Shown: positions 9,301 through 55,911 of the stretch, piece after piece
How positions within the stretch are numbered: the first letter of the stretch is position 1
Layout of the letters: every line of letters starts with the position of its first letter
Source: Ostreococcus lucimarinus
Taxonomy: Eukaryota
Assembly: GCA_000092065.1 (NCBI GenBank)
Contig: CP000595.1
Direction: 5' to 3' (one strand)
Length of the DNA: 64,000 nucleotides
Made by a program: the position numbers and the translations under genes
The notes under the pieces: model-generated
What the model was told of the DNA's origin: nothing
What the model saw: the letters and a program-made list of their open reading frames with translations, nothing else
Database searches by the model: none

Positions 9301-11258
9301 AACCCAGTGCGAAAAACGCCGCGAATGCCAGTGTTGCGAGACGCGCATCGGATGCAATCACAAACTTAGCACACGAGAACAGTCGCATTAAAACGATGGT
9401 TCGAAATGCGAATGGCATCCCTCCTCTGGTCAATCTATTGGAATCGCAAGAGAAAAAAGTCCAGAAGGCTGCCGCTAGTGCGCTCAGAACTCTGGCTTTC
9501 AAAAATGGTGAAAATAAAAACCAAATTGTCGAGTGTGGCGCACTTCCGAAGCTCATTTTCATGGCTCGTTCAGAGGACGTAATGATTCACAAAGAAGCAA
9601 TTGGTGTGATTGGAAACTTGGTTCACTCTTCGCCGCACATCAAACGACGCGCCCTCGACGAAGGAGCGCTGCAACCCGTGATTGAATTGCTCAAGTCTCA
9701 GTGTTCCGAAACGCAGCGTGAGGCGGCGTTATTGCTTGGTCAGTTTGCCGCGCGCCTTGAGCCTGCAGCGCCGGGTGATCCAGACTATCGGACAAAAATA
9801 GTCCAGCGTGGAGCTGTAGAGCCGTTGATTAAAATGCTCGGCGGTCAATTTGTCTATCGTGAACCTGGTCTTCGAGAGATGGCAGCCTTTGCCCTCGGTC
9901 GACTTGCGCAACACGGGGATAATCAAGTCGGAATCTGCCATTCGGATGGATTACGGCCGTTGTTGACGTTACTCGAATCAGAGATAGAAGATATCGCCGA
10001 AGGACTTCGTCATCATAGCGCTTCCGGGAAGTCTGATCACGAGATCGATCTAGACGCCAAGCGCTTTGCTGAAAATTTGCAGCACAACGCTGCGTTTGCA
10101 CTCTATGGCCTAGCCGCGCATCAAGACAACGTGCCAAAGATGCTCAAAGAGAACGCCTTCATGCGGTTGAAATTTTCTCATCTCATCGCCGAACAGAGCA
10201 AACAATGTGTGAATAAAACGTTAAAGCGGCTCGAGGACGGAGTCAGCCGCAGAGATGTCTTGACTTATCTCGGTTTCGTCATAAGCACTGGCAAGCCAGT
10301 CGAACGTCAAAGAGTAACGCTCGCTCTGGCTTGGCTAATCAGGAAAGAAAACCAAGACTATCTGAAAGACATGCGCGCGGTTTTCATAGACAAAGGTGGT
10401 CTTGACGTCCTTTCTGGCGCTTTACTTGATACGCCGGCGGAGCCCATAGACTTTTCTGGGCATACGAGTGGTCTCGCCGGTGGCAAACGCATTGTAAACG
10501 TGATAATGGAGGCTCTGAGAGAGATTAAGGACAAGCTGGTGTCACAGGTTGTGGTGGAATCTCACATGATGCCGCCACCCTCGACGCCAACGGCCGAGGA
10601 GCATATGCCAGCGAACTTCAATGACCCCGAGCTTTCAGACGTGACGTTTATTGCTCGGGATGATGAAGGTGAAAAGCGAGAGTTCAATGCGCATAGAATC
10701 GCTTTTACGCACGCCTCTGATGCGTTCTTATCAACGCTCGAAGCGGGTAAAGCTGATGTCGACGTTTATCCCGCCACATACAAGGTTGACCTCGAAGACG
10801 TTTGTTGGAACGTGCTTGAGGCGATGATGGATTTCATTTACACGGGCACTGTCGGACCGATGTCCAGCCTCCGAGACCAGGCGTTTCTCCAGCATAGATG
10901 CGAGGACGTACTCTCCGCCACGACACGCTTCGACCTTCCCGGGCTCAAGTATTTGACCGAAAAACTTTTCATCGATAACGTGAAAATGGATACTTTCACA
11001 TTCGCGAGAACGTGTGCATTGTATCGCGCCGCCGTGGAGCACGACGCCGTGGCGATCCAGGACCACGTGCTGGGCTATGTTCTCGACAACTACGACAAAC
11101 CTTGGATTGACGACGATGTCACGATGAATTGTCTCACTTCATACAAAGCGCGCGTGAAAGACATCGTCGAATGCTTCGGGAAAGGCTTGGTGAAATACCT
11201 TGACAAACTGTTGCGCCGAGAGCGCGTCGCCGTCGTCGCGGACGCGCAAGACGAATGA
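6324..11258 (+). CDS. Large armadillo-repeat plus C-terminal BTB/POZ protein (ARIA/ABAP1-like architecture), 1644 aa; start uncertain
   Basis: ARM-like repeats at 9200-9900 (NGIPPLVNLLESQEKKVQKAAASALRTLAFKNGENKNQIVECGALPKLIFMARSEDVMIHKEAIGVIGNLV...). BTB domain near the C-terminus (DVTFIARDDEGEKREFNAHRIAFTHASDAFLSTLEAG...YKVDLEDVCWNVLEAMMDFIYTG). The body from about 6900 on is about 45-50% GC against about 70% in the flanks. The GC-rich low-complexity N-terminal 190 aa may be UTR. Confidence 0.7.
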   Translation: MTREERGSSAKKKRRTSTSSAKGESGATLDGQREARALGPWSTTARAREERARARAHASASASGKRTREEEEKGSFRGLFVDCRTVDDDAAFEAWEREMRAVGEALRECPCTEKDWESVGAMESAQGEGESDAWESEKIWLHKMSRIAFYDSQPLSETNAWPFASRTKKDATKSTVALFKASVSAFIAAKNTQRLAEVDWKLQENKLINSWKELLMTHTPRPGGLADVSCEFNVHVTALEQELAKRQNEGDKSDEFGRRIKHIKIMIQVLQSIKASFQYCATALYDTVFAPLRAFSSASITSENFESGVEFVSWASRSVMIASELCQTKDSYHVRMTRYTKHEFLNWSRKLLDFFYHHLSSVRGSHIVETLGSGSDCAELMQLIKCLPTMRLTLPCKGTSRRATYLSDTRFSDKFQRKLTRFALTVIGAAKSQLSQHTQTHKLGKFLFPEWIEHLVDTIEHNKSYTVKELAREILLSLDIANLLATRVEVLSVKSLIKLSDDELSVDDELSVDYDDDVKELKELLSWLRSILSVHPSKLRNVADLAKDLISVFGFCRLRRETHGDKVQKSGHDHSLESDICSIFACLAVSRDHDLDDEEKLKSCPCEMVKLRSEDARKMIQQLVMHEDHLDDVEAVILNMLTLDRTSMSASDTTIPSALAALTMLVRKNCVLRERFFKSGDTTNTLLEILECKNANVARITSACILSFEEHHRLVTSLYKPNVITDKKGEQVTEISGWDVDTIRQSLRAISALVKDSTVSSIGFDSAILEVICTDRRMLVLTNKIKATIEKKINKSMDYPNSRLCFPEALLEEWVFDLLCMRSDLLTQMATAVTNGGGDPWKNFKPKHEEFASFISREFEVANTDATIPPEAHAEWFQEVVTLVTTVQEKLKKDEEISDVCSILMDGDTDGPSSRVGIVVPILTLLHKCRILQEHNLISELEVEGISDIEKEACYVIGLLASKQGIQDRIASSFLIEGKNGIEQLIPLLQRYQPSAKNAANASVARRASDAITNLAHENSRIKTMVRNANGIPPLVNLLESQEKKVQKAAASALRTLAFKNGENKNQIVECGALPKLIFMARSEDVMIHKEAIGVIGNLVHSSPHIKRRALDEGALQPVIELLKSQCSETQREAALLLGQFAARLEPAAPGDPDYRTKIVQRGAVEPLIKMLGGQFVYREPGLREMAAFALGRLAQHGDNQVGICHSDGLRPLLTLLESEIEDIAEGLRHHSASGKSDHEIDLDAKRFAENLQHNAAFALYGLAAHQDNVPKMLKENAFMRLKFSHLIAEQSKQCVNKTLKRLEDGVSRRDVLTYLGFVISTGKPVERQRVTLALAWLIRKENQDYLKDMRAVFIDKGGLDVLSGALLDTPAEPIDFSGHTSGLAGGKRIVNVIMEALREIKDKLVSQVVVESHMMPPPSTPTAEEHMPANFNDPELSDVTFIARDDEGEKREFNAHRIAFTHASDAFLSTLEAGKADVDVYPATYKVDLEDVCWNVLEAMMDFIYTGTVGPMSSLRDQAFLQHRCEDVLSATTRFDLPGLKYLTEKLFIDNVKMDTFTFARTCALYRAAVEHDAVAIQDHVLGYVLDNYDKPWIDDDVTMNCLTSYKARVKDIVECFGKGLVKYLDKLLRRERVAVVADAQDE

Positions 11259-41001: not shown

Positions 41002-41258
41002 TCGCGCGCGCTTCTCTTCTCCGTGTAATCACACGCGCGCGCACAATTTAGCCCTCTTTTTTGCTCGCCGTCGCGCTTCTCCGCGCCGCGAGCGTCCCGC
41101 GCCCTCCGTCGCGTCGGCGTCGCCGTCTCCGGCGCGATCCACCGCCTCACCTAAGAAGGTCGACGTCACGGCGTCAAAAAGCGCCGCCTTCGTCGCCCCT
41201 TCGTCGCGCGACGCGCGCGATCGCGGTCGAAACGCTCGAATCGAGCGAAACGCGCGCG

Positions 41259-43910
41259 ATGGCGTTCGACGACGCGTCGCGCGTCGCGCCGCAGCCGCAG
41301 CGCGCCGAGCGCGACGGCGACGACGCTTCGGTCGTCGGTCCGGGACGAAAAGCGCAATCGCTCCAAACGAAGGATTCGTCGAGCGAACGGACGCGAACGG
41401 GCGTCGCGAACCGAGTGAATGGGTACTTTGGCGCGAAGTTTCATCGCCTCGGGCGATTGAGCGCGTCGAGACCTTGGACGGTGATGCTGTGCTCGATGTT
41501 GTTTTGCATCTTGTGCGCCGTCGGCTTGGGGGCGCCGGGATTGAAGAATGAAAAGCGCGGCGATAAGCTTTGGGTGCCGACCGATACGCCGGCGCAGGGG
41601 GATAAGAATTACGTCGATGCGAATTTTGGCTCGGAGACGCGCTTCGCGCAGGTGATTTTACGATCGACGACGAACGGGGCGAACGTGCTCACGCCGACGG
41701 GGTTGGCGGCGCTGGAGAACGTCGCGGCGCGAGTGCGGAACGCGAATATCGCGTGGGAAGGTGCGACGTATACTTATGCGCAACACTGTTACAAAATGGG
41801 GGCGACGTGCTACGAAAAGAGCGTGCTGAACGCGTTTGCGAACGCCACGGCGTACGGGTCGCAGTCGCTAATCGACGCGGCGCTGAGCGCGTCCCCGTTG
41901 ACCAGCGAGAACCCCAACGATGGATCTACGGTGTTGTTGAAGAACGTCGCCGGTGGAATAACCATGACTGGTGCCGTGCCGAGCGCCTCGGCGATTTCTC
42001 TGACGTACTTGTTCAAGAATAACGACGTGCTGAGGAACGGAGATTACGTCGATGAAAAGGGCGACGCGTTTGATAGCGTCGTGCTCGATATTTTCGCCAA
42101 TCCTCCGTCCGGTTTCAGCGCTTCATACGTCACCGAACGATCATTTTCCGACGAATTTGGCAGCACAATTCAAAGTGATTTGCAAAAGCTTCAAATCGCG
42201 CTGTTTTTGATTCTCGCCTACGCCGCGCTCACGCTCAGCAAATGGAACATGGGATGCGTCGGCTCTCGAGTGGGCGTCACTCTCGCGGGTATCGTCTCCA
42301 TCGGCATGGCCATCGCATCTGCGTACGGCATCGGTGCTTATTGTGGTCTCTTCTTCTCGCCGTTGATGAATGTTCTGCCGTTCTTATTGCTCGGCATCGG
42401 CGTCGACGACATGTTTGTCATCGTAAACTCGTACGACAACACGGAGGCGCGCGTCGACCCGGTCGAACGCATGGGGCGGTCTTTGCGAGTCGCCGGGATG
42501 AGCATCACGGTCACATCGGCCACGGATGTCATCGCCTTTCTCATCGGTTCGTCCACGTCGTTGCCAGCGTTGAAGAACTTTTGCTTCTACGCGGCGCTCG
42601 GCATCTTCTTTGACTATCTCTACCAAATCACCTTCTTCACCGCTTTCTTGTCCATCGACGAGCGAAGAAAGAGCGAAAACAAAGCCGACTGCTTCTTTTG
42701 CTTGGACTGCCCTCCCGAGGCGTGCTGCGTGTGCTGTACGCCGAAAAAAATGCCGAAGTCATTGCTGCAAATCGCTTTGGGCGATGGTCTCGGTAAGCAA
42801 CTCGGAAAGAAGCCCGTCAAAATTTTTGTCCTCGCGTTCTTCTCCGCCATCACCGTCGGCGGCATCATCGGTTCGACGAAGATGCAAGTCGATGCGGACG
42901 TGAACAATTTCATCCCAGATGGATCATACTTGAAGAACTGGTTCGCCGACACAGACGCGTACTTTACCGAGTACGGTGACGCGGTCGAGATCTACTCCAA
43001 GAGCACGCTCGATTTGACGACGGAAGATTCCATCTTGCGCGCCGCCACGGCGGCGTTTACGGCGAATCCGTACGTCATCAACGAATCCGTTCGTTCTTGG
43101 GTTGACGACTTTTACACATATCACACCACTACCAATGGCGTGACCGTGACGTCGCTCAACTATATCCCATCGCTCAAGACCTGGCTCAGCACCGCTGCTG
43201 GGTCTCAGTACAAAAACGACGTCGTGTTTGACGACGAGACGTCGCCGACGGCCATCGTCAGCACGCGAATTCACGGCAACCACATAAAGACGGACAAGTC
43301 GAACGTCAACGTGCAGGCGATGGATACGTTGCGCGCCGCGATTAACGCTGTCAGTGGTAACAACGGTCGAATTTTCGCCTTTGGTAGTCAGTGGTTGAAT
43401 TACGAGCAGTACAAGTCGATCACGAGCGAAGCCATCAGGAATATTTCCATCACTCTCGCGGCGTGCTTCGTCATCATCGCCATGCTCGTCATCGAGATTA
43501 AAACCGTCGTGAGCGTGTCCTTGGCGCTGACGATGATTTTTGTCAACATCGTCGGTTACATGCACTTCTGGGGTCTCACCATCGATTCCGTGACCGTCAT
43601 CATGCTCGTCATCGCTCTCGGACTCGCCGTCGATTACTCGGCGCACATCGGTCGCGCGTACTTGGAAAAGACTGGCACCCCGGACGAACGCATCGTTCGC
43701 ACGCTCCAGGACATGGGTGTCGCCGTCTGGAACGGTGCGATGTCCACCTTCATGGCTGTTCTCATCCTCGGCTCCTCCGATTCGTACGTCTTCCAAACCT
43801 TTTTCAAGCAGCTCTTCCTGTGCATCGTCCTCGGCTTGATGCACGGCTTGATCTTCCTTCCGGTGGTGCTCTCCATGTTGCGTCCCGCCGCGTACGCCGA
43901 GGCCACGTGA
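41259..43910 (+). CDS. Patched/NPC1/Dispatched-family (sterol-sensing-domain, RND-like) membrane protein
   Basis: LLGIGVDDMFVIVNSYDNTE is the SSD/Patched motif. Two six-TM bundles. The track start at 41061 is TTG; the first ATG is at 41259 (MAFDDASRV). Confidence 0.75.
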   Translation: MAFDDASRVAPQPQRAERDGDDASVVGPGRKAQSLQTKDSSSERTRTGVANRVNGYFGAKFHRLGRLSASRPWTVMLCSMLFCILCAVGLGAPGLKNEKRGDKLWVPTDTPAQGDKNYVDANFGSETRFAQVILRSTTNGANVLTPTGLAALENVAARVRNANIAWEGATYTYAQHCYKMGATCYEKSVLNAFANATAYGSQSLIDAALSASPLTSENPNDGSTVLLKNVAGGITMTGAVPSASAISLTYLFKNNDVLRNGDYVDEKGDAFDSVVLDIFANPPSGFSASYVTERSFSDEFGSTIQSDLQKLQIALFLILAYAALTLSKWNMGCVGSRVGVTLAGIVSIGMAIASAYGIGAYCGLFFSPLMNVLPFLLLGIGVDDMFVIVNSYDNTEARVDPVERMGRSLRVAGMSITVTSATDVIAFLIGSSTSLPALKNFCFYAALGIFFDYLYQITFFTAFLSIDERRKSENKADCFFCLDCPPEACCVCCTPKKMPKSLLQIALGDGLGKQLGKKPVKIFVLAFFSAITVGGIIGSTKMQVDADVNNFIPDGSYLKNWFADTDAYFTEYGDAVEIYSKSTLDLTTEDSILRAATAAFTANPYVINESVRSWVDDFYTYHTTTNGVTVTSLNYIPSLKTWLSTAAGSQYKNDVVFDDETSPTAIVSTRIHGNHIKTDKSNVNVQAMDTLRAAINAVSGNNGRIFAFGSQWLNYEQYKSITSEAIRNISITLAACFVIIAMLVIEIKTVVSVSLALTMIFVNIVGYMHFWGLTIDSVTVIMLVIALGLAVDYSAHIGRAYLEKTGTPDERIVRTLQDMGVAVWNGAMSTFMAVLILGSSDSYVFQTFFKQLFLCIVLGLMHGLIFLPVVLSMLRPAAYAEAT

Positions 43911-44105: not shown

Positions 44106-46169
44106 ATGCGCACGGCTTCGTCGACTTCGTCGGCGTCGCGCCGCGCGTCCCTGTCTCTCTCGCGCGCGTCGTCGGCGACGGTTCGCGCGGCGAACCGACG
44201 TTGCGATCGTCATAACGGTGTCGTTCGTTCGCTCGAACGCGCGCGCGGAAGCGCGCACGCGACGCGCGCGACGCCGCGATCGGGCGATCGGGCGACGTTT
44301 ACGGATGCGTACGCGGTGGACGCGAGCTTCGGTGGCTCGCTGGACGCGTCGTCGGATCGATGGGACGGAACGGCGCTGTCGTGGAGCTCTGAGATGGATT
44401 ACGACGAGGAGTTCGGCGCGCCGTGGTGGACGCCCGAACGCGTCGCGCGCGTGGGACGAACGATAGAAAGCGCGGTGAATGACACGATGCGAGAGTGGCC
44501 GGACGAAGGGTTGACGGTCGAGAGATTGGTGGAGACGCTCGTGTCGAGAGGGGCGCTTCGCGCGGATGAGCGCGCGGCGCTCAGGCAGCGCGCGAAACGC
44601 GTCGGCGAGGATTGGACGCGGTATGCGCAAGCCGAGGATCGCGCGGTCTTAAAGCTACGAAGGAAGTTGGTAAAGGGCGAGGACATTCGCGCGAATGCGT
44701 TGAAGCTGCCGAAAATCGACTCGACGTCGATAAAAGATTGGACCAAGTCGGATTGGGAACGCTTCTTCAAGGTGGTTTTGGCGTCCGTCATCGGCGGTGC
44801 CGCGTTATTTGCGAGCGGAGGGACCGCGACACCGGCGCTAGTGGCGGCAATGCACGGACTCGGGCTCGGTGCTGAAGCGTTTTCAGCGTTCGGTGGTTTG
44901 CAATGTATGCTCGGCGTCACCGGCGCGTCGCTGTGCGCGCAAAAGATGGCGAATCGCACCAAGACTGAGCTTGAAAACTTCGACCTCATACCGCTTCGCG
45001 GCGCGCATAAATCGTATGCCATGCATATATTCGTTCCTGGGTTTACGCGCGACGACCATGACTTATTAGGCGCTTGGGGTGCGACGAACAACCAATACGT
45101 CTCCGTCGTGCCGGAATCCCGTTCCGTCGTCCCCGACCTGGGCATCGAGTTCACGAGTGGCGCAGATGGATCGATCATCGTACAGGCGAAAGACGATTCA
45201 ATCGCCAAGCGTCATGGTGTTGTTTCTGGAAGCACTCTGCTGTCTTATCGATCGGTTAAAAAACCTGGCGAGCCGAGTGTCGTGCTCTCCGAACTCGTCG
45301 ACATGCCGACGTCTGACGAATTGTCGCGAGTGCCGCGCCCAATCGAGATTCGACTGCAGCTCCCCGATCGCGATGATGAGCTGAAGAAAGAAATGAGCGA
45401 GCTCGCGAACGAAATCAAGTCTCAAGTCGGTAATCATAGCAAGGAAGAACACTTGCCGACCGCTGAAGCGGCTATTCGACCCGAGCAACGGCGCTGGGGC
45501 AATCGCACGGGCGAGCAACTCGTGTTGAATTGGGAGCCGTCTACACTCAATGAACTCGGCGCGTGCATGACATCCTGGAACGAGACGTGCACCGTCAACT
45601 TTTACTTAACGCCCGCAGCGTTGGCTAAGACTGCGCTCGGAGGGATCGCTGACGCTATCGCTTGGCCGGCGACGCTTCTCTCGAGCGCGGGTTTCATCGA
45701 CGATCCTTGGGCTTTGGTCAAACTGCGCGGAAAAATCGCGGGCGAAGAACTCGCGCAGAGCTTGTTAGATGGCCAGCATGGTCATCGACCGGTGACGTTC
45801 GTCGCGTACAGCGCCGGTGCTTACGTCGTTCAGAGCTGCTTGCAAAAGTTGTACGAAGCCGGCGACAGAGGCAAGAACATCGTCGACCGCGCAATCTTCA
45901 TCTCGGCGCCGATTTCTACGTCCAAGGACGTTTGGCAGCCGATGCGTGAGGTCGTCTCCGGTCGTCTCGTTAACGTCCACTGCCACACGGATTGGATTTT
46001 GCTTCTCATGTGGCGCTTCAACATGCTCGATCCCATGACCAGACTCGCGGGCTTGTCCATCGTCAAGCGCGTGCCGAGCGTGGAAAACTACAACATTAAA
46101 AATCTCCGTCACGCGCATCTCCCCGACGAAATCTCGCGCGTGCTCGAGGAAATCGACCTTCAAGAGTAA
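44106..46169 (+). CDS. DUF726/TMCO4-like alpha/beta-hydrolase-type membrane protein; start uncertain
   Basis: C-terminal block VTFVAYSAGAYVVQSCLQKLYEAGDRGKNIVDRAIFISAPISTSKDVWQPMREVVSGRLVNVHCHTDWIL is the DUF726 GxSxG region. Confidence 0.5.
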   Translation: MRTASSTSSASRRASLSLSRASSATVRAANRRCDRHNGVVRSLERARGSAHATRATPRSGDRATFTDAYAVDASFGGSLDASSDRWDGTALSWSSEMDYDEEFGAPWWTPERVARVGRTIESAVNDTMREWPDEGLTVERLVETLVSRGALRADERAALRQRAKRVGEDWTRYAQAEDRAVLKLRRKLVKGEDIRANALKLPKIDSTSIKDWTKSDWERFFKVVLASVIGGAALFASGGTATPALVAAMHGLGLGAEAFSAFGGLQCMLGVTGASLCAQKMANRTKTELENFDLIPLRGAHKSYAMHIFVPGFTRDDHDLLGAWGATNNQYVSVVPESRSVVPDLGIEFTSGADGSIIVQAKDDSIAKRHGVVSGSTLLSYRSVKKPGEPSVVLSELVDMPTSDELSRVPRPIEIRLQLPDRDDELKKEMSELANEIKSQVGNHSKEEHLPTAEAAIRPEQRRWGNRTGEQLVLNWEPSTLNELGACMTSWNETCTVNFYLTPAALAKTALGGIADAIAWPATLLSSAGFIDDPWALVKLRGKIAGEELAQSLLDGQHGHRPVTFVAYSAGAYVVQSCLQKLYEAGDRGKNIVDRAIFISAPISTSKDVWQPMREVVSGRLVNVHCHTDWILLLMWRFNMLDPMTRLAGLSIVKRVPSVENYNIKNLRHAHLPDEISRVLEEIDLQE

Positions 46170-46297
46170 ATATTCCTGTAATTCCTGTAATAACGATGCA
46201 CTGACCCTCGCCGCCGCGCGTTTCGCTTTGCCTCGAGTCGGCGTCCGCGGCGAGCCCACACTTCGTGCGGCGTCCCCACACTTCGTGCCGTCGCGCC

Positions 46298-47485
46298 ATG
46301 CCGCGAATCGTCGGGCTCGGCGACCCCGTGACTGATGTGGTGTATCACGCATCTCGCGACGCGATCGTCGCGCTGTTGCGCGACGCGCACGACGCACACG
46401 ACGCGGATGAAGTTGAAATCGGCGGCTGCGTCCCAGTGTCCGCGCGCGAGCTGCGCGCGCTCGTGCGCGCGATTCCCGAGCGCGACGCCGTCGTGAGCCC
46501 CGGCGGAAGCGCGGCGAACGTTCTCAAAGGCATCGCACAGTGCGCGGCCGACGATGCGAGCTCGACGACGTCGTGCGTGTTCGTAGGGACCGTGGACGGG
46601 CGGGACGACGTCGGCGCGGCGTACGGGGACGCGCTGCGACGCGCGAGAGTTGAATCGGCGCTCATGGCGTACGAAGGCGATGATGCGAGCGATGCAGAGG
46701 GAGAAAATGGAATAATTGGAAGCGCGCGATGCGTGTGCTTGGTGGACGATCGAGGGCAGAGAACGATGCGGACGTATTTGGGGGCGTCGGCGAAGACGCG
46801 AGCGGACGATTTGCCGAGCGAGGCGTTGCGCTCGGCGGATGTGTTGCACGCGGAGGGGTACGCGCTGTATAAACCGGATGTTTTAGCGCGCGCGTGCGCG
46901 CTGGCCAAGGAAAACGGCGCGCTCGTGAGCTTAGATTTGGCGTCGTTTGAGGTTGTGAGGCACTGTCGAGACGCGCTGCGCGAGACGCTCGAGTCGGGCG
47001 TCGTCGACGTGATATTTTGCAACGAAGACGAGGCGCGCGAACTCGTGCGTGGAATCGACGACGACGGCTGCGCGCGCGCGCAGGAGTCGCATCCGCAGTT
47101 GAACGGGCGCGACGTCGAGCGACCGAGCGAGGAAACCGAGTTGGCGGCTTTGGCGTATTTATTGCGTTACGTCAAACTGGCCGTGTGTTCTCGCGGCAAG
47201 CGCGGGTGCGTCGCGATGAACGCTGAAGGCGAGCGAAGCGAATCTCGCGCCGAAGGCGTGGAAGCGATCGACACCACGGGCGCGGGAGACACGTTCACGA
47301 GCGGGTTCTTGCACGCCTATCTCGCCGGTGGATCGTTGCGACAGTGCGGCGACGCCGGTTGCGCCGCGGGGGCAGAGGTCGTTCAAGTTCGCGGCGCGGA
47401 GATGGACGACGATCGCTGGCGTCGCGTGCGCGAAAAGATTGCGATAATTTTAGGCAAGGAGCGCTCACCGAGCGCGACGATGTAG
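46298..47485 (+). CDS. PfkB-family carbohydrate/nucleoside kinase (ribokinase/adenosine-kinase-like)
   Basis: SPGGSAANVLKGIAQ is the N-terminal motif. DTTGAGDTFTSGFLHAYLAG is PfkB signature 2. The track start is GTG; the first ATG is at 46298 (MPRIVGLGDP). Confidence 0.75.
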   Translation: MPRIVGLGDPVTDVVYHASRDAIVALLRDAHDAHDADEVEIGGCVPVSARELRALVRAIPERDAVVSPGGSAANVLKGIAQCAADDASSTTSCVFVGTVDGRDDVGAAYGDALRRARVESALMAYEGDDASDAEGENGIIGSARCVCLVDDRGQRTMRTYLGASAKTRADDLPSEALRSADVLHAEGYALYKPDVLARACALAKENGALVSLDLASFEVVRHCRDALRETLESGVVDVIFCNEDEARELVRGIDDDGCARAQESHPQLNGRDVERPSEETELAALAYLLRYVKLAVCSRGKRGCVAMNAEGERSESRAEGVEAIDTTGAGDTFTSGFLHAYLAGGSLRQCGDAGCAAGAEVVQVRGAEMDDDRWRRVREKIAIILGKERSPSATM

Positions 47486-47571
47486 CGTTAGCGATAAAAA
47501 TCTGGTTGTCGTGTTGTTATTGATTCATCATCACGAAATTCGGCCCCAAAGTACTTCACGCGTTCTCTCGT

Positions 47572-48879
47572 TCAGATCGCGAAGGTGCCGACGGGTTCTC
47601 GTTGTCGATATTTGCGCGCTCGAAGGTGCCTCTGGTAGCACGCCGTGCACACGGTGTGTTCGCCAGACTTGCGCCACTGCGATGATTGCTTCGTGCGGTC
47701 GCACGACGGACAGTGCCGCGGCGGCGCGGAGCTCGGCTTTTGCGCCTTTTTCCCGCCGTTTTTGTGCGGCGGCATGCGCTTGCGAGGCGCGCCGGCGGCG
47801 TTCAAATCCGGGTGATTCGCGCGGTCGCTGAAACACTGGTGACACGTCCACACGGGTTCGCCCTCGGGCCCGGTTTCTTTCGATCGGTACCATCGCACGT
47901 CGGGCTCGGTGCGCTTCGCCTTTCGGCAATCCGCGCACGTTCGTTCGTCGCGCAGTTTCCGCATGCGATTCTTCGTTCGGTGATAGCACTTGTGGCAGCA
48001 CTTCCCCCCCGCCGCCGCGTCCTCCGACGGGTCGCTCACCAACAGCATCCCGTTCGCGGAATTCCCGCACTTTTCGCACCGCGTCAGCGCGCCCTCGTTC
48101 TTTCTCCGCTCCTTCCGCGCGCGCTCGTAGCACTTCGCGCACCGCGTCCCGAGCGCGCCGCCCTCGCGCCCCGTCGCCGCGGTCCCCCGCGCGGGATCGT
48201 CCGCCGCCACGCGCACCCACTCCCCCCTGCACTTCGTCTCCCCGCACTCCACGCACGCCCGCACGACGCCGTCGACGACGTGCTCCGTCGTCGCGTTCCT
48301 CTTTCTCCGCTCTCTCTGAAAGCACGCCTTGCACCGAAACCGCGTCGCGTCGCCCCCCCCGTCATCCATCCTTCGCCATCTCGACGTCTTCTCCGCCCCG
48401 CACGTCTCGCACGCCCGCCCATCCGTCGCCGGTGGTGCGCGCTTCTCCGTCCTCTGCCCCGGCGTCCCTCGCGCGCCCTCCGCGGTCGCCGCCGGTCGTT
48501 TCCGCGGCGTCCCGGTCGCGCGTCCCGGTCGCGCGTCGAGCGACCCGAGTCTCGCCGTCGTCTCGCGCGTCGTCGCCTGCACGCGCGCGCGATCGTCGCT
48601 CGGCGCGCGCACCGAAGCGACGAGCGAGCGCTCGCGCGTCGCGCGGCGCGACATCGTTGTCGACGGATCGCGCGCCGGGGCGTCGAGAGTCGCGCGCGTC
48701 CGTGTGTGGATCGCGCAACGGTCGAATGCGATCGATGGATGCGATCGATGCGATCGATCGATCGATCGACGCGAGGCGACGGCGCGATGCGGATGATTCG
48801 GACGCGCGAATCCCATCGTTCGCGCGCGCGCGCGTTCGCGCGTTCGCGCGTTCGCGCATTCGCGCGCATGCACTCGCAT
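47572..48879 (-). CDS. Protein with five tandem GATA-type (CX2CX17-20CX2C) zinc fingers; putative transcription factor
   Basis: CETCGAEKTSRWRR...CKAC; CVECGETKCRGEW...CAKC; CEKCGNSANG...CHKC; CADCRKAKRTEPDVRWYR...CHQC; CPSCDRTKQSSQWRKSGEHTVCTAC. The last is the most GATA-canonical (T..WR...G..C.AC). ATG at 48877-48879. Confidence 0.6.
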   Translation of the reverse strand: MRVHARECANARTRERARARTMGFARPNHPHRAVASRRSIDRSHRSHPSIAFDRCAIHTRTRATLDAPARDPSTTMSRRATRERSLVASVRAPSDDRARVQATTRETTARLGSLDARPGRATGTPRKRPAATAEGARGTPGQRTEKRAPPATDGRACETCGAEKTSRWRRMDDGGGDATRFRCKACFQRERRKRNATTEHVVDGVVRACVECGETKCRGEWVRVAADDPARGTAATGREGGALGTRCAKCYERARKERRKNEGALTRCEKCGNSANGMLLVSDPSEDAAAGGKCCHKCYHRTKNRMRKLRDERTCADCRKAKRTEPDVRWYRSKETGPEGEPVWTCHQCFSDRANHPDLNAAGAPRKRMPPHKNGGKKAQKPSSAPPRHCPSCDRTKQSSQWRKSGEHTVCTACYQRHLRARKYRQREPVGTFAI

Positions 48880-48928
48880 TCATCCGAGGGGGACGACGAC
48901 GGACGACTGTGTCGTTGTATCATCGGGT

Positions 48929-49080
48929 ACGAAGCCCTTGGTATATGACCCAGTGCGTCGTATACGGTCACGGTTTTCGCTATGTATCGAAAATCAGGGT
49001 TACGAAGCCCTCGGTATGTGACCCAGTGCGTCGTATACGGGCACGAATATCGCTGTGTATACGGACACGAAAATCAGGGT
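48929..49080. repeat. Imperfect tandem duplication, 2 x about 75 bp, in the divergent GATA-ZnF/SEL1L promoter
   Basis: tacgaagccctTggtatAtgacccagtgcgtcgtatacggTcacg...aaaatcagggt repeated as tacgaagccctCggtatGtgacccagtgcgtcgtatacggGcacg...aaaatcagggt. Confidence 0.75.
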
Positions 49081-49091
49081 TTAGGGTTTAG
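49077..49091. promoter_or_regulatory. Interstitial telomere-like repeat GGGTTTAGGGTTTAG (two TTTAGGG units, contains telo-box TTAGGGTTT)
   Basis: Immediately follows the tandem duplication. About 90 bp upstream of the SEL1L ATG and about 200 bp from the GATA-ZnF ATG. Confidence 0.5.
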
Positions 49092-49183
49092 AAGATGCCG
49101 CCGACGCGCGACCGCGGCGACGCCGACCGTCGCGCGCATCGCGACGCGCGACGCGCGACGATCGCGCCGTCGCGCGACGCGCG

Positions 49184-51385
49184 ATGGCGCGGGCGTCGAC
49201 GCGCGACGCGCGCGACGCGCGCGACGCGCGACGGCGCGACGGCGCGGTGCGTCGACGCGGGAGACGCGCGGTGACGGCGATGACGACGCTCGCGATGATG
49301 ACGCTCGCGGTGACGCGCGCGCGCGCGGACGGCGCGACGACGACGACGACGACGACGACGACGGATCGCGCGAGTCGCGAGAGCGCGATGGGCGACGCGG
49401 GAGGGCCGAGGGATGGGATTCCGCACCCGGCGGCGGCGGCGGCGCGCGAACGCGAACGCGAACGCGAGGACGAGGACGCGGCGCGGACGACGGGCGCGAA
49501 AACATCGCGAGTGGACGACGAACGGAAAAAGTACGTCGATGATTTGCTCGAGGAGGAGTCGGTGGACGATCGAAGGCGGGCGCGGTCGGCGAGCGCGTCG
49601 AGGGCGTCGAGGGCGCGAGCGAGACGCGCGGCGGCGGAGTGGATCGAGGCGTACGTCGAGGGCACGGCGACGAGAGACGCGAGCGGGTGGGACGACGGCG
49701 AGGCGTGGTTCGCGCTCGGGCACGCGCGCAGGTACGGGTTGATCGAGGGACGGGAGATGGACGAGGGGGGGGCGATGGAGTGCTTGCGGCGCGCGGCGGA
49801 GCTGGGGGACGCGGCGGCGCACGACGAGTTGGGGTTCACGTACGCGAGTGGATGGGACGGCACGCCGCGCGATGGCGCGAAGAGCGTGCTGCACTATTAC
49901 TTCGCCGCGAACGCGGGGAGCGTGCGAGCGATGATGGCGCTGGGGTATCGACACAAGCACGGCATCGACGTTCCCGAGTCGTGCGAGACGGCGGTGTTGT
50001 ACTATCACGAGGCGGCGAAAATCGTCGTGGAAGAGGCGGCCAAACGCACGCCGGGGGTGCTGCCGTTTCAGATTGAAAAACACCGTCTCAGCGCGGAGAT
50101 GAGCGGGAGTAATCTCGCGGCGAGGCGCGAGCGGGATTTGGTGCAGTATTATCGTTACAGCGCCGACATGGGCAACGTGGACGCGCAGGTGACGATGGGT
50201 CGGTTGTACTCGCTCGGCGCCCGCGGGTTGCGCAAAGACGTCGGCGCCGCGCGTAAATACTTGACGGACGCCGCGAACGCGGGAGACGCGACGGCGATGG
50301 CAAATTTAGGAAACATGTACGCCAACGGGTTCGGCGTCGACGTCGACAACGCCACGGCGTTGCACTGGTTTCGCAAGGCGGCGAAGAAAGGCAACGCCAT
50401 GGGGCGGTACGGGCTCGGGTACATGACGCTCGCCGGTCACGGCGTGGCTCAAGATCACGCGTTGGCGGTGCAGTACCTGAACCAAGCCGCTGAGCAAGGG
50501 CTTTCCGACGCGCGATACTTTCTCGGCGTCTTGCACTTGCGAGGCATCGGCGTCAAGCAAGATTTCACAAAGGCGTATCATCACTTCAACATCGCTTCGC
50601 ACGTCGGGCACGAGGTTGCGACGTATAATTTGGCGATGATGCAGTTGAACGGCATGGGGTTTCCGTCGTCGTGCGCGTCCGCGAGCGCGTTACTGAAACA
50701 ACTCGCCGAACGAGGACACTGGGCGACGCCGATGGAGCACGCGTACGCGGCGTACATGCGTCGTGACTACCGCGGCGCGCTCTTGCGTTACATGAAAATG
50801 GCAGAGATGGGAATCGAGATCGCTCAAGCCAACGCCGCGTTCTTGCTCGAACAAAGACTCGGTGACGAAGGTCGATTCCGCGAGGACACTCAGGTGAACC
50901 CAGAGGCGCCGAGCACGGCGACGCGCGCGCTCCACTACCATCGACTCGCGGCGACGCAAGGTAACGTCAAGTCGCTTCTTCGCATCGGTGACGCGTATTA
51001 CTGCGGCAAAGGCGCGAACGTCTCGCTCACGAAATCTATCGCCGCCTATCGCCAAGCGAGCGAACAGAGAAATCCGCACGCGATGTTCAATCTCGCGCAC
51101 ATGCACGAGCACGGCATCGGCATGCAAAAAGACTTGCACCTCGCCAAGCGTTACTACGACATGATCCTCAACAACGCCCCAGACGCCACCATCATCGTGC
51201 ACCTGGCCCTCAAAAAGCTCGTGCTCCATCAGTGGATCATCGACAACAAGGACACCATCTTGCGCGTCGCCAAAGAAATCCACGCGAGTCCGACGGCGCA
51301 ATTCGTCGACTTCGTCGTCGTCGTCGGCGCCGCGGCGTTGCTTTGTTTCGTCCTTCTCCTTCGCGTCGGACTCGCTCGCGGGTGA
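49184..51385 (+). CDS. SEL1L/Hrd3-like Sel1-repeat protein (ERAD component) with C-terminal TM anchor
   Basis: More than 10 Sel1 repeats (AMANLGNMYANGFGVDVDNATALHWFRKAAKKGNAMGRYGLGYMTLAGHGVAQDHALAVQYLNQAAEQG...). C-terminal TM FVDFVVVVGAAALLCFVLLL. Signal-peptide-like MTTLAMMTLAVTRARA near the N-terminus. Confidence 0.7.
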   Translation: MARASTRDARDARDARRRDGAVRRRGRRAVTAMTTLAMMTLAVTRARADGATTTTTTTTTDRASRESAMGDAGGPRDGIPHPAAAAAREREREREDEDAARTTGAKTSRVDDERKKYVDDLLEEESVDDRRRARSASASRASRARARRAAAEWIEAYVEGTATRDASGWDDGEAWFALGHARRYGLIEGREMDEGGAMECLRRAAELGDAAAHDELGFTYASGWDGTPRDGAKSVLHYYFAANAGSVRAMMALGYRHKHGIDVPESCETAVLYYHEAAKIVVEEAAKRTPGVLPFQIEKHRLSAEMSGSNLAARRERDLVQYYRYSADMGNVDAQVTMGRLYSLGARGLRKDVGAARKYLTDAANAGDATAMANLGNMYANGFGVDVDNATALHWFRKAAKKGNAMGRYGLGYMTLAGHGVAQDHALAVQYLNQAAEQGLSDARYFLGVLHLRGIGVKQDFTKAYHHFNIASHVGHEVATYNLAMMQLNGMGFPSSCASASALLKQLAERGHWATPMEHAYAAYMRRDYRGALLRYMKMAEMGIEIAQANAAFLLEQRLGDEGRFREDTQVNPEAPSTATRALHYHRLAATQGNVKSLLRIGDAYYCGKGANVSLTKSIAAYRQASEQRNPHAMFNLAHMHEHGIGMQKDLHLAKRYYDMILNNAPDATIIVHLALKKLVLHQWIIDNKDTILRVAKEIHASPTAQFVDFVVVVGAAALLCFVLLLRVGLARG

Positions 51386-51750: not shown

Positions 51751-51849
51751 TCGTCGAGAGAGGCGGCGCTGAGGCACGCGGGACGGTTGAGCGGGGACGA
51801 GCGGGACGGACGAGCGCGCGCGGAACGACGCGCGGCGAGGCGAAGGACG

Positions 51850-54800
51850 ATGAGCGCCAAGGCGAGCTTGATGAAGACGCTCAAGGCGGCGAACGAGGCG
51901 TTGAAAGCCGGGGACGCCGCGAGCGCGCGAGGTTTGGCGAAGGAGGCGATCGAGGCGGACGGGGACGCGTACGAAGCGTGGGTCATGGATGGAAAGGCGG
52001 CGAACGCGCTCGGGGCGCTCGATGACGCGGTGAAATCGTACGAGCGTGCGATTGAGATCAGAAGCGAGCATCCAGCGGCGTATCAAGGGTTGAATGAGAC
52101 GTTCGCGGCGAAAGGTGATGTCGTGGGGCGGTTGCGCGCGTTGCGAGCGCTCGTCGACGCGCATCGAGCGAGCGGGAAGGTGGACAAACTCGTCGAGTTT
52201 TTGAAACAAGCGTGCGCGTGCGCGTGGGAAAACGCGCAATGGTCGCGCGTGATTGAGTTCTGCGGTGAGATGGGCGAGTTTCGCACGGGAGAGGTGGACG
52301 AAGTGACGCGCGTTGAGTCGGTCAAACGCGCGTGCGACGGCGCGTTGGCTTTGCGCGACGCGCGCGCCGCCGAGGCGGGAGAGGCGGCGGTGCAAATGCT
52401 TCGTTCGAAGACTATTGCGAGTAAGGCTGAAGAAGAAGCTGTGCGCAAGTTGGGTGCGCGAGCGTCGCACGCCGTGGACGACGAAGACTTGGCGACGACC
52501 CTGCGAGCTTGGCTGAGCGAAGACGTCGCCAACGCGTCGTACGATTCACGGACGCACGCCGCGGAATTGGATCGACTCGACGCCCGTCTGGCTGCTGCGC
52601 TTTCGGGATCGGTCGACTGCGACTTCGATGTCAGAGCGTGCGCACGTGAGGCGCTGACTGAGGCTACTGTACTCATCGATCGATGGGGCGAAGTCGTCAT
52701 TGATCTCGTCGAGCCGCTGTGCGTGGAAATCGTCGCCGCGCTCGAACTCGGTTTAGATTGCGAAGAAGAGGGATGGGATGATAACGAGGTCGAGGATGAA
52801 GATGAGGCGAAAGTCATACGTTTGCTCGAGCGCGTGCTCGCTTTACGGGCGAACACGATCGCGTCAGGCTGGCTCGCGCTCAGGGACTCGCGTCGAAGCG
52901 GCGCATTTACGCATTCATGCCGTCCCGCGACTCCTCCTCGAGAAGACGCCAGAGGTTTGCTGACGCCGGAGCTTCGGGACGAAATTGTAACCACGCTCAA
53001 TCGCGATGACGAGTCGAAAGTGAGCCATGCGTCCGCCGCAATCGGCTGGCTTGCGTTGGCGGAGTCCATGCTCGTCGGCGGCGAGCGTGCGGACGTGCAC
53101 GCGCTTCAGGCCGCGACCACGGCGATGAAAATCATGCGCGAAGACATCACAACAGATGCATTACCGAAAATGTCCCGACGGGTTTTGATGGTGCACGCTG
53201 AGGCTATGCTTCGCGTAGGGATGTTTCAAGAGGCGAGGGCTGCGTTTGTCGTGCTTGAAGGTCCGCGAGCGGCGCGAGGATTGGCGACGTACGCGTTCAA
53301 CGCGCACCCTCCCGATTACGAGCGCGCTTTGCAGTTACTCTCCGACGCCGCCGAGACTTACCCTAACGTGCGACGCGTGGGCGTTGAGCTCGGATGGCTC
53401 ATGACCATTGCTGGATCTTCAGAGCGTCGAGCCGAGGGGTTGGAGACGCTCGAGCGAGCGTGCGGCGTAAAGTCAGGTGAGCCGTTGTCGACGACGACGC
53501 CCGCTGATGCAAGTGCGCGACTCGGAATCGCTAGATGGCGCGCTCAAGTCTCAGCGGCGAAGGGGCCAGGGAGCGCGCACGAGGCGTTACTCATCGGCGC
53601 CGCGGGCGATTCGGCGCATCGCGCGGCGGCTTTCGCGCATCTCGGTCTTTCGTGCGGTGCAAGCGGCGATGACGCGCGCGCGCAAAAGTGTCACGCGCGT
53701 GCGCTGGCACTCGACGCTGCGGACCCGACATCTGGGCCTGTGGCGTTTACGAACGCGTTGGACGCGAACGACGACGCCAAGGCGACGTCCATTTGCCGCG
53801 CTGCGCTCGCCGTGGATTCGCGGTGCTCCTGGGCGGCGAACAGACTCGCGCCAATGTGCGCTCGTATCGGTGATCACAGCGGTGCCATTGGCGCCTTACA
53901 AGTAGTCTTGCGTGTTTCTCCTCGAAACGCCAGCGCCTGGGAAGCTTTAGGTGCGTCGTACAACAGTCTCGGTAGGCATTCCGCCGCGCTCAAAGCATTC
54001 GAGCGAGCGATGGAGTTGAGCGATGAAGCGGGCGAGGGAGTTCGCTCATACGCGGCTTCGCAAACAGGACACATTTATTTGGCGCTAGGATCCTCCGCAG
54101 ACGCTATTGAGGCTTACGACAAAGCACTAAGCGATGGCGTCGATCATTTAGCCGCCTTGTTTGGTTCGGCGAGCGCTCACTCGTATTACGCCAAAGGCGC
54201 GTTGCGCTGGGGCGCTCCGGGACGCGCCGCGGTATCACTAAAAGCCGCAACAAAAGCAGGGAAACGCGCGGTAGAAATCATGGGCGACGGCGCCACCGCA
54301 ACGGTTTGGAAGTTGCTAGGGGACATTCATCACCTCGCAGCGCAAGTCAATGATCCAGCGCTCGGGAAGGACTTCACATCCATGCTTGCCGCGCGAACGA
54401 CCGAAGCTCGCAGCGCGGTCGAGGCGTACGGAAAGGCATTGAACCTAAAACCCGACCGTCCCGGTCGATGGCGTGACGTCGTTGCTGCGCTGCGATTGCA
54501 AACCGAGATTCACAAACTTTCAGGCGACGTCGCAGCTGCGGAGGCGAGCGCGGCAAAGGCGTGGGAACGCGCCGCGGGCTACCTTCGAGTCGCCCCAGGC
54601 GACCCGTTCGCCTGGTTCGCCGCGGCAGCGATCGATGATCCTGCCGTAATTTCAGACGCTGTGCGCACTGAGCGAAAAATCACCGCTTTATCTCGCGCCG
54701 TCGCACTCAATCCCACGTTTGCTCAAGCGTGGTGCGCGCTGGGCCGTTTGTATCTATCATCGGGCGACGTCGGCGAGGCGACTTTATCGCTTGACAGCGC

Positions 54801-55911
54801 GCGTATCGCCGACCCAAGCAGTGGTGATGCGTGGACAGCGACTGCAGCTTTGCACATAGCCACTGGTAAATTAGCTGAAGGACGCGGCGCGTTCCGTATG
54901 GCGGCGGCGCTTGGCGCCGGCGCGGAGGCAGATTTGGGATGTGCGCTCACGGCGTGCGCTTCTGGGTTGACTTATGCCAAAGATGCTTACGCGGCTGCTC
55001 GTCGGGCGAGTGAAAGTTTACCCGTTGATTCTACAGCGGCGATCGCACTCGCCCTTTGCGCCGAATGCCGAGGGTTGTTTGAGGAAGCCGAAGATGCAGC
55101 GGCGCACGCAGTGGCGTCGCTCGAAAACGTCCCTGCGCTGGGCGGCGATCCAAACGTCATACGAACCGTCGCAGAAGAATGCCGCGCTCGAGTGTCGCAA
55201 AGACGGTTGGACGATTCCGACTCAACCGCATCCACGAGTGTTGATGGAGACTTTGAGAACACGCTTGAACGCGCCAAACTTTTGGTGCATGCGCGACCCG
55301 GAGATTTGAAGATGCAGGACGCTTTGACGCGCGTGGCGTCGTGCGCCCCAGATCACCAAACAGTCGTTTCGGCCCTCTCTGCATGCCCACCATCTTCACC
55401 AAACGGTGACTATCGCGTTCAATCTTCGCTCGCGCGCGCTGCGGCGGCGTGCGCCTTGAACGCGTCGACCGTTGTCGGCGACGCCGAGGGCTCGGCTCGA
55501 GCCAATCGATTCGTTGCGCGCGCGACGATGCTCGATCCATCCTCTACAGAGTCCCTCGAACTGCTCAACATCGTTCTCGATCGACGTAAGGGCATCGTTC
55601 GAGAAGCCACGCAATCGGAAGCACACGAGCTCCACGCCGCGCTCAAGTCTGCCTTGACGCAGAGCGCCGCCGGCGATTCAGCCTCCGCCGAAGCCGCCGC
55701 GCGCGCCGTCGTCAATCGCGAGCCCATCACCGACGCCGCGCAAGCCGCCGCTCGTCTCATCCTCGCTTCGTTTCTCATCGAACGCTCTCGACGCGACGGC
55801 GACGCCAAACCGGCGAAGGAGGCGATCAAGGTATTGGCGAAGATTCCATCCGAAGCCGGCGCTCGAGTCGCCGATCTCGCGGCGGCGCTGGCCGACGCCG
55901 TGTCGGGATGA
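51850..55911 (+). CDS. Ski3/TTC37-like TPR protein (SKI complex scaffold), 1353 aa
   Basis: The N-terminus is colinear with the TTC37 N-terminus (...[42 protein letters not shown]): MSAKASLMKTLKAANEALKAGDAASARGLAKEAIEADGDAYEAWVMDGKAANALGALDDAVKSYERAIEIRSEHPAAYQGL. TPR-like repeats run throughout. Real ATG at 51850. Confidence 0.5.
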   Translation: MSAKASLMKTLKAANEALKAGDAASARGLAKEAIEADGDAYEAWVMDGKAANALGALDDAVKSYERAIEIRSEHPAAYQGLNETFAAKGDVVGRLRALRALVDAHRASGKVDKLVEFLKQACACAWENAQWSRVIEFCGEMGEFRTGEVDEVTRVESVKRACDGALALRDARAAEAGEAAVQMLRSKTIASKAEEEAVRKLGARASHAVDDEDLATTLRAWLSEDVANASYDSRTHAAELDRLDARLAAALSGSVDCDFDVRACAREALTEATVLIDRWGEVVIDLVEPLCVEIVAALELGLDCEEEGWDDNEVEDEDEAKVIRLLERVLALRANTIASGWLALRDSRRSGAFTHSCRPATPPREDARGLLTPELRDEIVTTLNRDDESKVSHASAAIGWLALAESMLVGGERADVHALQAATTAMKIMREDITTDALPKMSRRVLMVHAEAMLRVGMFQEARAAFVVLEGPRAARGLATYAFNAHPPDYERALQLLSDAAETYPNVRRVGVELGWLMTIAGSSERRAEGLETLERACGVKSGEPLSTTTPADASARLGIARWRAQVSAAKGPGSAHEALLIGAAGDSAHRAAAFAHLGLSCGASGDDARAQKCHARALALDAADPTSGPVAFTNALDANDDAKATSICRAALAVDSRCSWAANRLAPMCARIGDHSGAIGALQVVLRVSPRNASAWEALGASYNSLGRHSAALKAFERAMELSDEAGEGVRSYAASQTGHIYLALGSSADAIEAYDKALSDGVDHLAALFGSASAHSYYAKGALRWGAPGRAAVSLKAATKAGKRAVEIMGDGATATVWKLLGDIHHLAAQVNDPALGKDFTSMLAARTTEARSAVEAYGKALNLKPDRPGRWRDVVAALRLQTEIHKLSGDVAAAEASAAKAWERAAGYLRVAPGDPFAWFAAAAIDDPAVISDAVRTERKITALSRAVALNPTFAQAWCALGRLYLSSGDVGEATLSLDSARIADPSSGDAWTATAALHIATGKLAEGRGAFRMAAALGAGAEADLGCALTACASGLTYAKDAYAAARRASESLPVDSTAAIALALCAECRGLFEEAEDAAAHAVASLENVPALGGDPNVIRTVAEECRARVSQRRLDDSDSTASTSVDGDFENTLERAKLLVHARPGDLKMQDALTRVASCAPDHQTVVSALSACPPSSPNGDYRVQSSLARAAAACALNASTVVGDAEGSARANRFVARATMLDPSSTESLELLNIVLDRRKGIVREATQSEAHELHAALKSALTQSAAGDSASAEAAARAVVNREPITDAAQAAARLILASFLIERSRRDGDAKPAKEAIKVLAKIPSEAGARVADLAAALADAVSG

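Follow-up and report, generated by a model that had tools for sequence, protein, structure and literature searches.

Does Ostreococcus lucimarinus encode a protein with five consecutive GATA-type zinc fingers, and would such fingers still be expected to read DNA? This question arises from an earlier note on a 64,000-nucleotide stretch of contig CP000595.1 (assembly GCA_000092065.1), hereafter the window, which described the open reading frame (ORF) at 47572..48879 on the minus strand as a 435-aa protein with five GATA-type fingers. The 435-codon ORF is present in the window and it does contain five CX2C-Xn-CX2C modules, although its coding part amounts to 360 aa, starting at M76. The five modules are, by profile comparison, homologous to one another, and four of them are demonstrably related in sequence to GATA fingers. 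The fifth, finger 3, is tied to GATA through its sister fingers alone.

The modules occupy ORF residues 157-186, 209-250, 268-298, 315-349 and 390-414. Their loops, from finger 1 to finger 5, are 22, 34, 23, 27 and 17 residues long, and the linkers between modules measure about 15-40 residues. The CX2C pattern is real and far above chance, with 20 of the 22 cysteines of the 360-aa protein sitting in 10 CX2C motifs; across 100,000 shuffles of the protein, the motif occurred 1.28 times on average and never more than 7 times, and no shuffle reached 10. The string that the earlier note quoted for the C-terminal finger is present exactly. Positive charge dominates the finger region (64 Lys and Arg versus 34 Asp and Glu), and a basic helix lies C-terminal to fingers 1, 2, 3 and 5, while finger 4 is without one. 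From N- to C-terminus, with values of the predicted local distance difference test (pLDDT) and of the ratio of nonsynonymous to synonymous divergence (dN/dS) where they bear on a feature, the protein contains the following:

48421..48654, minus strand: N-terminal 78 residues, rich in Arg, Ala and Thr, predicted to be disordered (pLDDT <50 over residues 1-77) and apparently unconstrained (dN/dS ~1.2)
48322..48411, minus strand: finger 1, CETCGAEKTSRWRRMDDGGGDATRFRCKAC, loop of 22, then the basic helix FQRERRKRN; Pfam GATA score 22.9 bits
48130..48255, minus strand: finger 2, CVECGETKCRGEWVRV...GTRCAKC, loop of 34, then the basic helix YERARKERRK
47986..48078, minus strand: finger 3, CEKCGNSANGMLLVSDPSEDAAAGGKCCHKC, loop of 23, then the basic helix YHRTKNRMRKLR; without Trp and the most divergent of the five
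47833..47937, minus strand: finger 4, CADCRKAKRTEPDVRWYRSKETGPEGEPVWTCHQC, loop of 27; the next helix, FSDRANHP, is non-basic
47737..47787, minus strand: basic stretch PRKRMPPHKNGGKKAQK in the linker between fingers 4 and 5, a candidate nuclear localization signal
47638..47712, minus strand: finger 5, CPSCDRTKQSSQWRKSGEHTVCTAC, loop of 17, then the basic helix YQRHLRARKYRQ; the most constrained of the five (dN/dS 0.09)

We assessed the relationship to GATA factors with Pfam GATA (PF00320), whose curated gathering threshold is 26.8 bits, and with profiles built for each finger from its orthologs. Against Pfam the whole protein reached 16.5-16.8 bits, under the cut-off. Taken in isolation, finger 1 scored 22.9 bits (E 6.4e-5) and finger 5 scored 19.5 bits (E 7.2e-4), with GATA as the top family in both cases, and fingers 2, 3 and 4 of the window protein found no Pfam match. 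When fingers 1, 2 and 4 of the orthologs were scanned singly, GATA was usually the best Pfam family, at 18.9-25.9 bits (22.9-25.9 for finger 2 and 18.9-20.6 for finger 4); the exception was finger 1 of one ortholog, for which DUF7573 (27.0 bits) outscored GATA (23.1 bits). The C-terminal finger had been called canonical, a description that its score below that of finger 1 and its CTACY in place of CNACG do not bear out. By these measures no finger is canonical, and it is finger 1, rather than the C-terminal finger, that is the most GATA-like.

Searched against PDB chain sequences, the finger 1 profile retrieved GATA-3 at E 2.9e-8, and the best 14 of its 17 matches were all GATA factors. The finger 4 profile retrieved GATA-3 (E 4.7e-5) and GATA-1 (E 1.3e-3), and all 7 of the 7 matches to finger 5 were GATA factors (best E 0.0039); the finger 2 and finger 3 profiles had no relevant match, and no GATA factor, among the PDB sequences. 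A profile of the whole array reached GATA-3 at E = 4 only, so that per-finger profiles were needed here. Among 1.84 billion representative proteins, the array profile matched the canonical two-GATA protein P0013 through finger 5 (E 3.9e-5).

We also aligned the fingers with hhalign, both to a canonical GATA profile (18 plant GATA fingers drawn from part of Table S4 in PMC11608367, together with the two fingers of P0013) and to one another, and derived z-scores from column shuffles in which the cysteines were kept in place (Cys-anchored). Against the canonical profile, fingers 1 and 2 scored 93.9% (z 7.8) and 94.5% (z 9.0), and fingers 4 and 5 scored 44% and 62%. The ten finger-versus-finger comparisons gave probabilities of 72-97%, including 95.5-95.9% for finger 2 with fingers 1 and 5, 96.2% for finger 4 with finger 1, and 72-88% for finger 3 with fingers 1, 2, 4 and 5, where 0 of 100 shuffles scored as high. 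For 9 of the 10 comparisons the observed score was higher than that of all 100 Cys-anchored shuffles; the tenth had a single aberrant shuffle that attained it. Two control series (A5-A4 and A7-A9) each contained one shuffle above 130, which we treated as degenerate-alignment artifacts; since such shuffles inflate the standard deviation, the z-scores of these two series are not meaningful. The claim of five GATA-type fingers thus stands in part: fingers 1, 2, 4 and 5 are GATA-related by profile, but none passes the Pfam threshold and finger 3 carries no direct GATA signal. Nor is the last finger the only one to score, a pattern that the earlier note took as grounds for abandoning its claim; fingers 1 and 5 both score below threshold, and profiles connect fingers 1, 2, 4 and 5 with GATA.

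Part of this likeness lies in the hairpin between the two cysteine pairs, which is best kept in finger 1 (G-A-E-K-T-S-R-W-R-R) and finger 5 (S-S-Q-W-R-K). The G-x-x-x-T-S-x-W-R-R of finger 1 aligns residue for residue with GATA-3. When each finger was checked for T-[PS]-x-W-R-[RK], finger 1 matched in full (TSRWRR, invariant among orthologs) and finger 5 matched with a one-residue shift (SSQWRK); finger 2 (GEWVR) and finger 4 (VRWYR) matched partially and finger 3 did not, so that one or two of the five fingers carry the motif. In finger 5, all family members share S-x-x-W-R-K and C-x-x-C-Y-Q-x-x-x-R.

Conservation of the array was examined in a family assembled by an exhaustive HMMER search of the same 1.84 billion proteins at E <= 0.001; word-indexed homology searches gave close relatives only, and the distant orthologs came from HMMER. 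There were ten matches in total, comprising the close ortholog P0005, a 122-aa fragment (P0006), seven multi-finger relatives with the same architecture at 27-33% identity, and the canonical P0013. The suggestion that the gene is lineage-specific is therefore upheld in the sense of lineage-restricted: the named family members are all Ostreococcus, and the other clusters come from marine metagenome contigs of up to 275 kb. All 20 finger cysteines, including the four of finger 3, are invariant in orthologs of 27-33% identity. Three orthologs (P0007, P0012 and P0014) have a sixth C-terminal module of the form CX2C-X20-CX2C, for example CERCGAHPKSSVAKWRMNTETSGVCGKC, to which no Pfam model matched; two of these orthologs are encoded at L003 599-1738 (P0012) and L004 8001-9158 (P0007), and the O. 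lucimarinus and O. tauri proteins are without the module.

Gene order is conserved as well. In the window, the finger gene is neighbored by genes for a PfkB kinase (convergent, with stop codons 86 bp apart), a DUF726 protein, a Patched/sterol-sensing protein, a Sel1-repeat protein (divergent) and a large TPR protein. The distant ortholog P0012 adjoins PfkB and Patched genes and P0007 adjoins Sel1 and TPR genes, and since these are the same neighbors, the two are positional orthologs. The comparison indicates that this is a tiny, lineage-restricted family with conserved synteny. The finger proteins encoded on the P0012 and P0007 contigs share about 32% identity with that of the window, whereas the PfkB, Patched, Sel1 and TPR proteins encoded beside them share 57-80% with theirs (the window genes compared were those at 46265-47485, 49184-51385, 41061-43910 and 51787-55911), and the O. 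tauri ortholog is likewise 33% identical to the window protein. By these identities, the finger protein is evolving much faster than its surroundings with every zinc ligand kept. Comparison with the L001 ortholog, which is 70% identical, gave dN/dS values of ~1.2 for the N-terminus, 0.41 for the finger region, 0.28 for finger 1 and 0.09 for finger 5, figures that rest on few sites and that indicate purifying selection on the finger region and none on the N-terminus. In the same comparison, the proportion of synonymous differences (pS) was ~0.05 at 47722-47946 (residues 237-311, finger 4 and linker) versus 0.19-0.38 elsewhere; this could reflect nucleotide-level constraint, gene conversion or small numbers (~20 synonymous sites).

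The gene itself is real and already annotated. Translation from M76 (nt 48654) is 100% identical over 360 aa to XP_001421764.1, which is also deposited as ABP00058.1 and UniProt A4S8G5 from O. lucimarinus CCE9901; NCBI names it "predicted protein" and UniRef "GATA-type domain-containing protein." The O. tauri ortholog is CEG00405.1, of 340 aa, annotated as "Zinc finger, GATA-type." A literature search by accession found no paper that mentions the XP_001421764.1/A4S8G5 protein. Two iron-responsive "zinc GATA factors" have been described in O. tauri (ostta03g01100 and ostta07g03410; PMC4855317), and no link between these and CEG00405.1 could be made. The ORF divides as follows:

47572..48654, minus strand: the actual coding sequence, without introns, 360 aa and a stop codon, 100% identical to XP_001421764.1
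48655..48879, minus strand: upstream in-frame ORF extension (codons 1-75), read here as a noncoding 5' leader or promoter with six copies of CGTTCGCG and (CGAT)n

Several observations indicate that the first 75 of the 435 codons are noncoding. The deposited protein omits them, and P0002 and P0005 begin at the same Met; they are made up of CGTTCGCG and CGAT microsatellites; and the 98%-identical strain protein P0001 reads its upstream part in another frame, which corresponds to window ORF 48084..48971. The microsatellites themselves, about 10 copies of (CGAT)n and the six of CGTTCGCG, lie at 48729-48866 and give the ORF extension its protein-like look ("IDRSIDR," "RERARAR"). We considered whether finger 1 had been lost by frameshift in wild strains, given the 265-aa versions P0003, P0004, P0029 and others, and rejected the idea; in the L002 DNA finger 1 is intact and the frame runs open through it, so that the 265-aa proteins are start-codon choices of a prokaryotic gene caller. 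The six frames of 46160-50083 hold 20 ORFs of at least 60 aa, including 420-aa and 295-aa ones that overlap the real gene on either strand. These overlapping Arg/Ala-rich ORFs look like products of high GC content rather than genes, and this effect also led metagenome gene callers to cut the finger protein to 265 aa. The window, which is nuclear DNA of O. lucimarinus, has a GC fraction of 0.61, and the contigs with distant orthologs have about 0.57-0.58.

An AlphaFold2 model of the protein, built from nine sequences, has a mean pLDDT of 66.7, with the fingers at 70-91 and the N-terminal 77 residues and the linker between fingers 4 and 5 disordered. A Pfam scan of the N-terminal region matched no family. 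Each module is modeled as a beta-hairpin and then a helix with its start at the second CX2C. The basic stretch PRKRMPPHKNGGKKAQK falls in the disordered linker, at low confidence and unstructured, and does not differ between the window protein and P0005, its 70%-identical ortholog; it looks like a nuclear localization signal. In a Foldseek search of the PDB, the best match was the complex of the GATA3 double finger with DNA (E 2.2e-3, probability 0.89, for a model that is itself a prediction and whose domains are small); the LIM structures LMO2, LMO4 and PINCH came just below it, and the C2H2 arrays CTCF and ZFP568 appeared at low probability; no PDB match reached E <= 0.001. The predicted fold is compatible with GATA-type treble clefs, and is not proof of them.

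Among known systems, the protein is closest to GATA factors (PF00320, IPR000679; animal GATA1-6, fungal AreA/Gln3 and plant GATAs), which provide its best Pfam, PDB-sequence and fold match. Common to both are the Cys4 site CX2C...CX2C, the helix that sets out from the second CX2C and the basic residues that follow it; finger 1 shares the G-x-x-x-T-[PS]-x-W-R-[RK] hairpin, and finger 5 has a 17-residue loop. GATA factors, however, have one or two fingers, whereas this protein has five and some orthologs six, and its loops of 22-34 residues in four fingers (16-43 across orthologs), the replacement of CNACG-[LIV] throughout, the absence of Trp from finger 3 and scores that all fall under the curated threshold set it further apart. 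These differences make binding to WGATAR doubtful. Several fingers per chain also occur in multi-domain plant GATA factors; a plant census found 2-5 GATA domains in 151 of 5,335 GATA factors, such as OsGATA24-26, and unusual loop lengths ("type IVe") to be enriched in chlorophytes (33 of 66) (PMC11608367). The architecture was earlier presented as unusual, and five fingers are indeed rare, but five GATA domains had already been reported, in 2 of the 5,335. In part of the census's Table S4, most fingers of the multi-domain examples are near-canonical type IVb (CX2CX18CX2C with CNACG) and some are partial IVp; in the Ostreococcus protein, by contrast, every finger is divergent, and its family is confined to Ostreococcus-like picoalgae. 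LIM domains resemble the array in Foldseek, being tandem zinc modules of GATA-like topology, but their ligand pattern is C2HC plus C4/C3H/C3D, whereas the ligands of the finger protein are all Cys, with no His or Asp, and its helices are basic. A more speculative, functional analogy may be drawn with poly-C2H2 arrays (CTCF and KRAB-ZNFs), which are also strings of small, quickly evolving zinc modules, although their fold and ligands are wholly different (C2H2, beta-beta-alpha) and there is no sequence relationship.

How might such an array function? We propose, with a probability of roughly 0.6, that the protein acts in the nucleus as a regulator, binding nucleic acid through several GATA-derived fingers. 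Its five tandem Zn(Cys4) fingers would have arisen by duplication and divergence of a single GATA-type (treble-clef) finger, behind a disordered N-terminus. Each finger would consist of a zinc knuckle, a beta-hairpin with a Trp-Arg/Lys motif and a helix beginning at the second CX2C, strongly basic in four of the five. The target would be read by several fingers at once. Sequence-specific DNA binding in the nucleus would be the most likely function. We favor this regulator because the fingers appear to descend from a DNA-binding finger and the W-R-[RK] hairpins of fingers 1 and 5 are invariant, and because basic helices follow four of the five fingers, Lys and Arg outnumber Asp and Glu by 64 to 34, and the stretch resembling a nuclear localization signal is conserved. 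Zinc binding, nuclear location, DNA binding and altered specificity are what we infer here.

Several observations weigh against this proposal. The Pfam GATA threshold is reached by none of the five window fingers, which is what the HMMER count of significant fingers suggested in the earlier note comes to, and by none of the 10 ortholog fingers tested. Finger 3 scored 9% against canonical GATA in hhalign, no better than shuffles, and so gives no direct GATA signal. The GATA spacing criterion is CX2C-X17-20-CX2C (class IV types IVa, IVb and IVc), and finger 5 (17) alone falls within it, the 22- to 34-residue loops of fingers 1-4 lying outside the GATA range; among orthologs the loops extend over 16-43 residues in finger 1, 17-41 in finger 4 and 16-17 in finger 5, with insertions building up at the hairpin turn. 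Most pertinent to DNA binding is the start of the helix. The canonical set has the consensus C-x-x-C-x-x-x-x-T-P-x-W-R-x-G-P-x-G-x-x-x-L-C-N-A-C-G, where Ala and Gly in CNACG never vary and conservation of the Asn, Thr and Pro is 90% or more. Fingers 1-5 of the window protein have CKACF, CAKCY, CHKCY, CHQCF and CTACY at this point. The Asn, Ala, Gly combination of CNACG is thus replaced in all five by C-x-x-C-[FY] or, more fully, C-N-A-C-G-[LIV] by C-x-x-C-[FY]-x-[RK]. In the published DNA complexes of GATA-1 and GATA-3, the Asn of CNACG contacts DNA bases. On three of its sequence features, then, the family as we read it fails the curated GATA definition. With CNACG changed in every finger, the target is probably other than the classical WGATAR. 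Within the family some of the replacements are themselves invariant (C-K-x-C in finger 1 and C-[ST]-x-C-Y-Q-x-x-x-R in finger 5), which argues that they are functional and not decay.

The loss of the CNACG helix motif from all five fingers would also be explained if the fingers, although derived from GATA, no longer bind DNA and instead form a protein-protein or RNA-binding scaffold, as some GATA-type and LIM fingers do. The position of LIM-domain complexes just under GATA3 in the Foldseek list is consistent with this, as are the fast change at positions other than the zinc ligands (identity of 32%, where the neighbors have 57-80%) and the non-basic helix after finger 4. We nevertheless consider a scaffold unlikely. 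The T-S-R-W-R-R of finger 1 and the S-x-x-W-R-K of finger 5 are family-invariant and correspond to the hairpin motif of GATA; all helices but that of finger 4 are strongly basic, in a protein of high net charge; and Pfam LIM has no match in the window protein even at E <= 10. LIM fingers, moreover, are joined by a 2-residue spacer, in contrast to linkers of about 15-40 residues here. A more skeptical view takes the modules for generic C4 zinc ribbons or treble clefs whose GATA likeness is convergent, so that the "GATA-type" label in UniProt would be an over-annotation. Every Pfam GATA score falls under the cut-off, small unrelated zinc-ribbon models score in the same range (as DUF7573 does, at 27.0 versus 23.1 bits), and the whole-array profile reaches GATA-3 in the PDB only at E = 4. 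Convergence would not lead one to expect per-finger profiles that retrieve almost nothing but GATA factors (the top 14 of 17 matches for finger 1 and 7 of 7 for finger 5), a likeness in fingers 1 and 2 that exceeds the cysteines (Cys-anchored shuffles fall short, with z = 7.8 and 9.0) or a G-x-x-x-T-S-x-W-R-R that can be aligned residue for residue with GATA-3, and we regard it as very unlikely.

Still harder to credit is the notion of a single working finger accompanied by decaying CX2C remnants, or of a chance open frame in GC-rich DNA. Many long spurious ORFs do overlap the locus in six frames, and fingers 2, 3 and 4 of the window protein lack a Pfam match, but ten CX2C motifs stand where 1.28 are expected, 20 cysteines are invariant at 27-33% ortholog identity, synteny is conserved, and purifying selection appears to act on the fingers but not on the N-terminus. 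These conservation data effectively refute the notion already. A regulator with GATA-derived fingers thus remains our preferred reading, and it can be taken further. In a picoalga-specific family, the GATA finger may have been multiplied into arrays of five to six fingers, whose DNA targets would be long or composite and which would evolve fast, like the poly-C2H2 proteins of animals. We hold this extension to be a long shot, although if it were true it would represent a poly-finger DNA reader invented independently on another zinc-finger scaffold, with a code unlike WGATAR.

Two further observations concern the surrounding DNA. The divergent promoter between the finger gene (minus strand) and the Sel1 gene (plus strand) contains, at 48925-49091, a tandem duplication of a 63-nt block with a spacing of 73 nt and an identity of 87%, set in a relatively AT-rich island; its 40-nt core occurs at these two places only within the window. 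Directly beside it lies the telomere-like AAACCCTAAACCCT (minus-strand reading), which resembles the plant "telo-box" promoter element. Elsewhere in the window, GC content falls to 0.49 at 8001-10000 (from about 0.6 elsewhere), within a long ORF at 6324-11258 (1644 aa).

The gene was already present in databases with a GATA-type label, and plant proteins with up to five GATA domains were known (PMC11608367). New here is that five modules, beyond the one or two seen by domain models, make up one homologous array, and that this conserved, single-locus array defines a small, syntenic, fast-evolving family of the Ostreococcus type with a helix signature of its own. Since current domain models miss most of these fingers, GATA censuses conducted at Pfam or InterPro thresholds under-count them. 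Ostreococcus has among the smallest transcription factor sets of free-living eukaryotes, so each uncharacterized DNA-binding protein represents a sizeable share of its regulatory repertoire. Should the array not bind DNA, the "GATA-type" label in UniProt would mislead on function. If it does bind DNA, it would reveal how much change the GATA scaffold tolerates, both in loop length (16-43 residues) and in the recognition helix, which is altered here, and it would offer a tractable test case, O. tauri being transformable.

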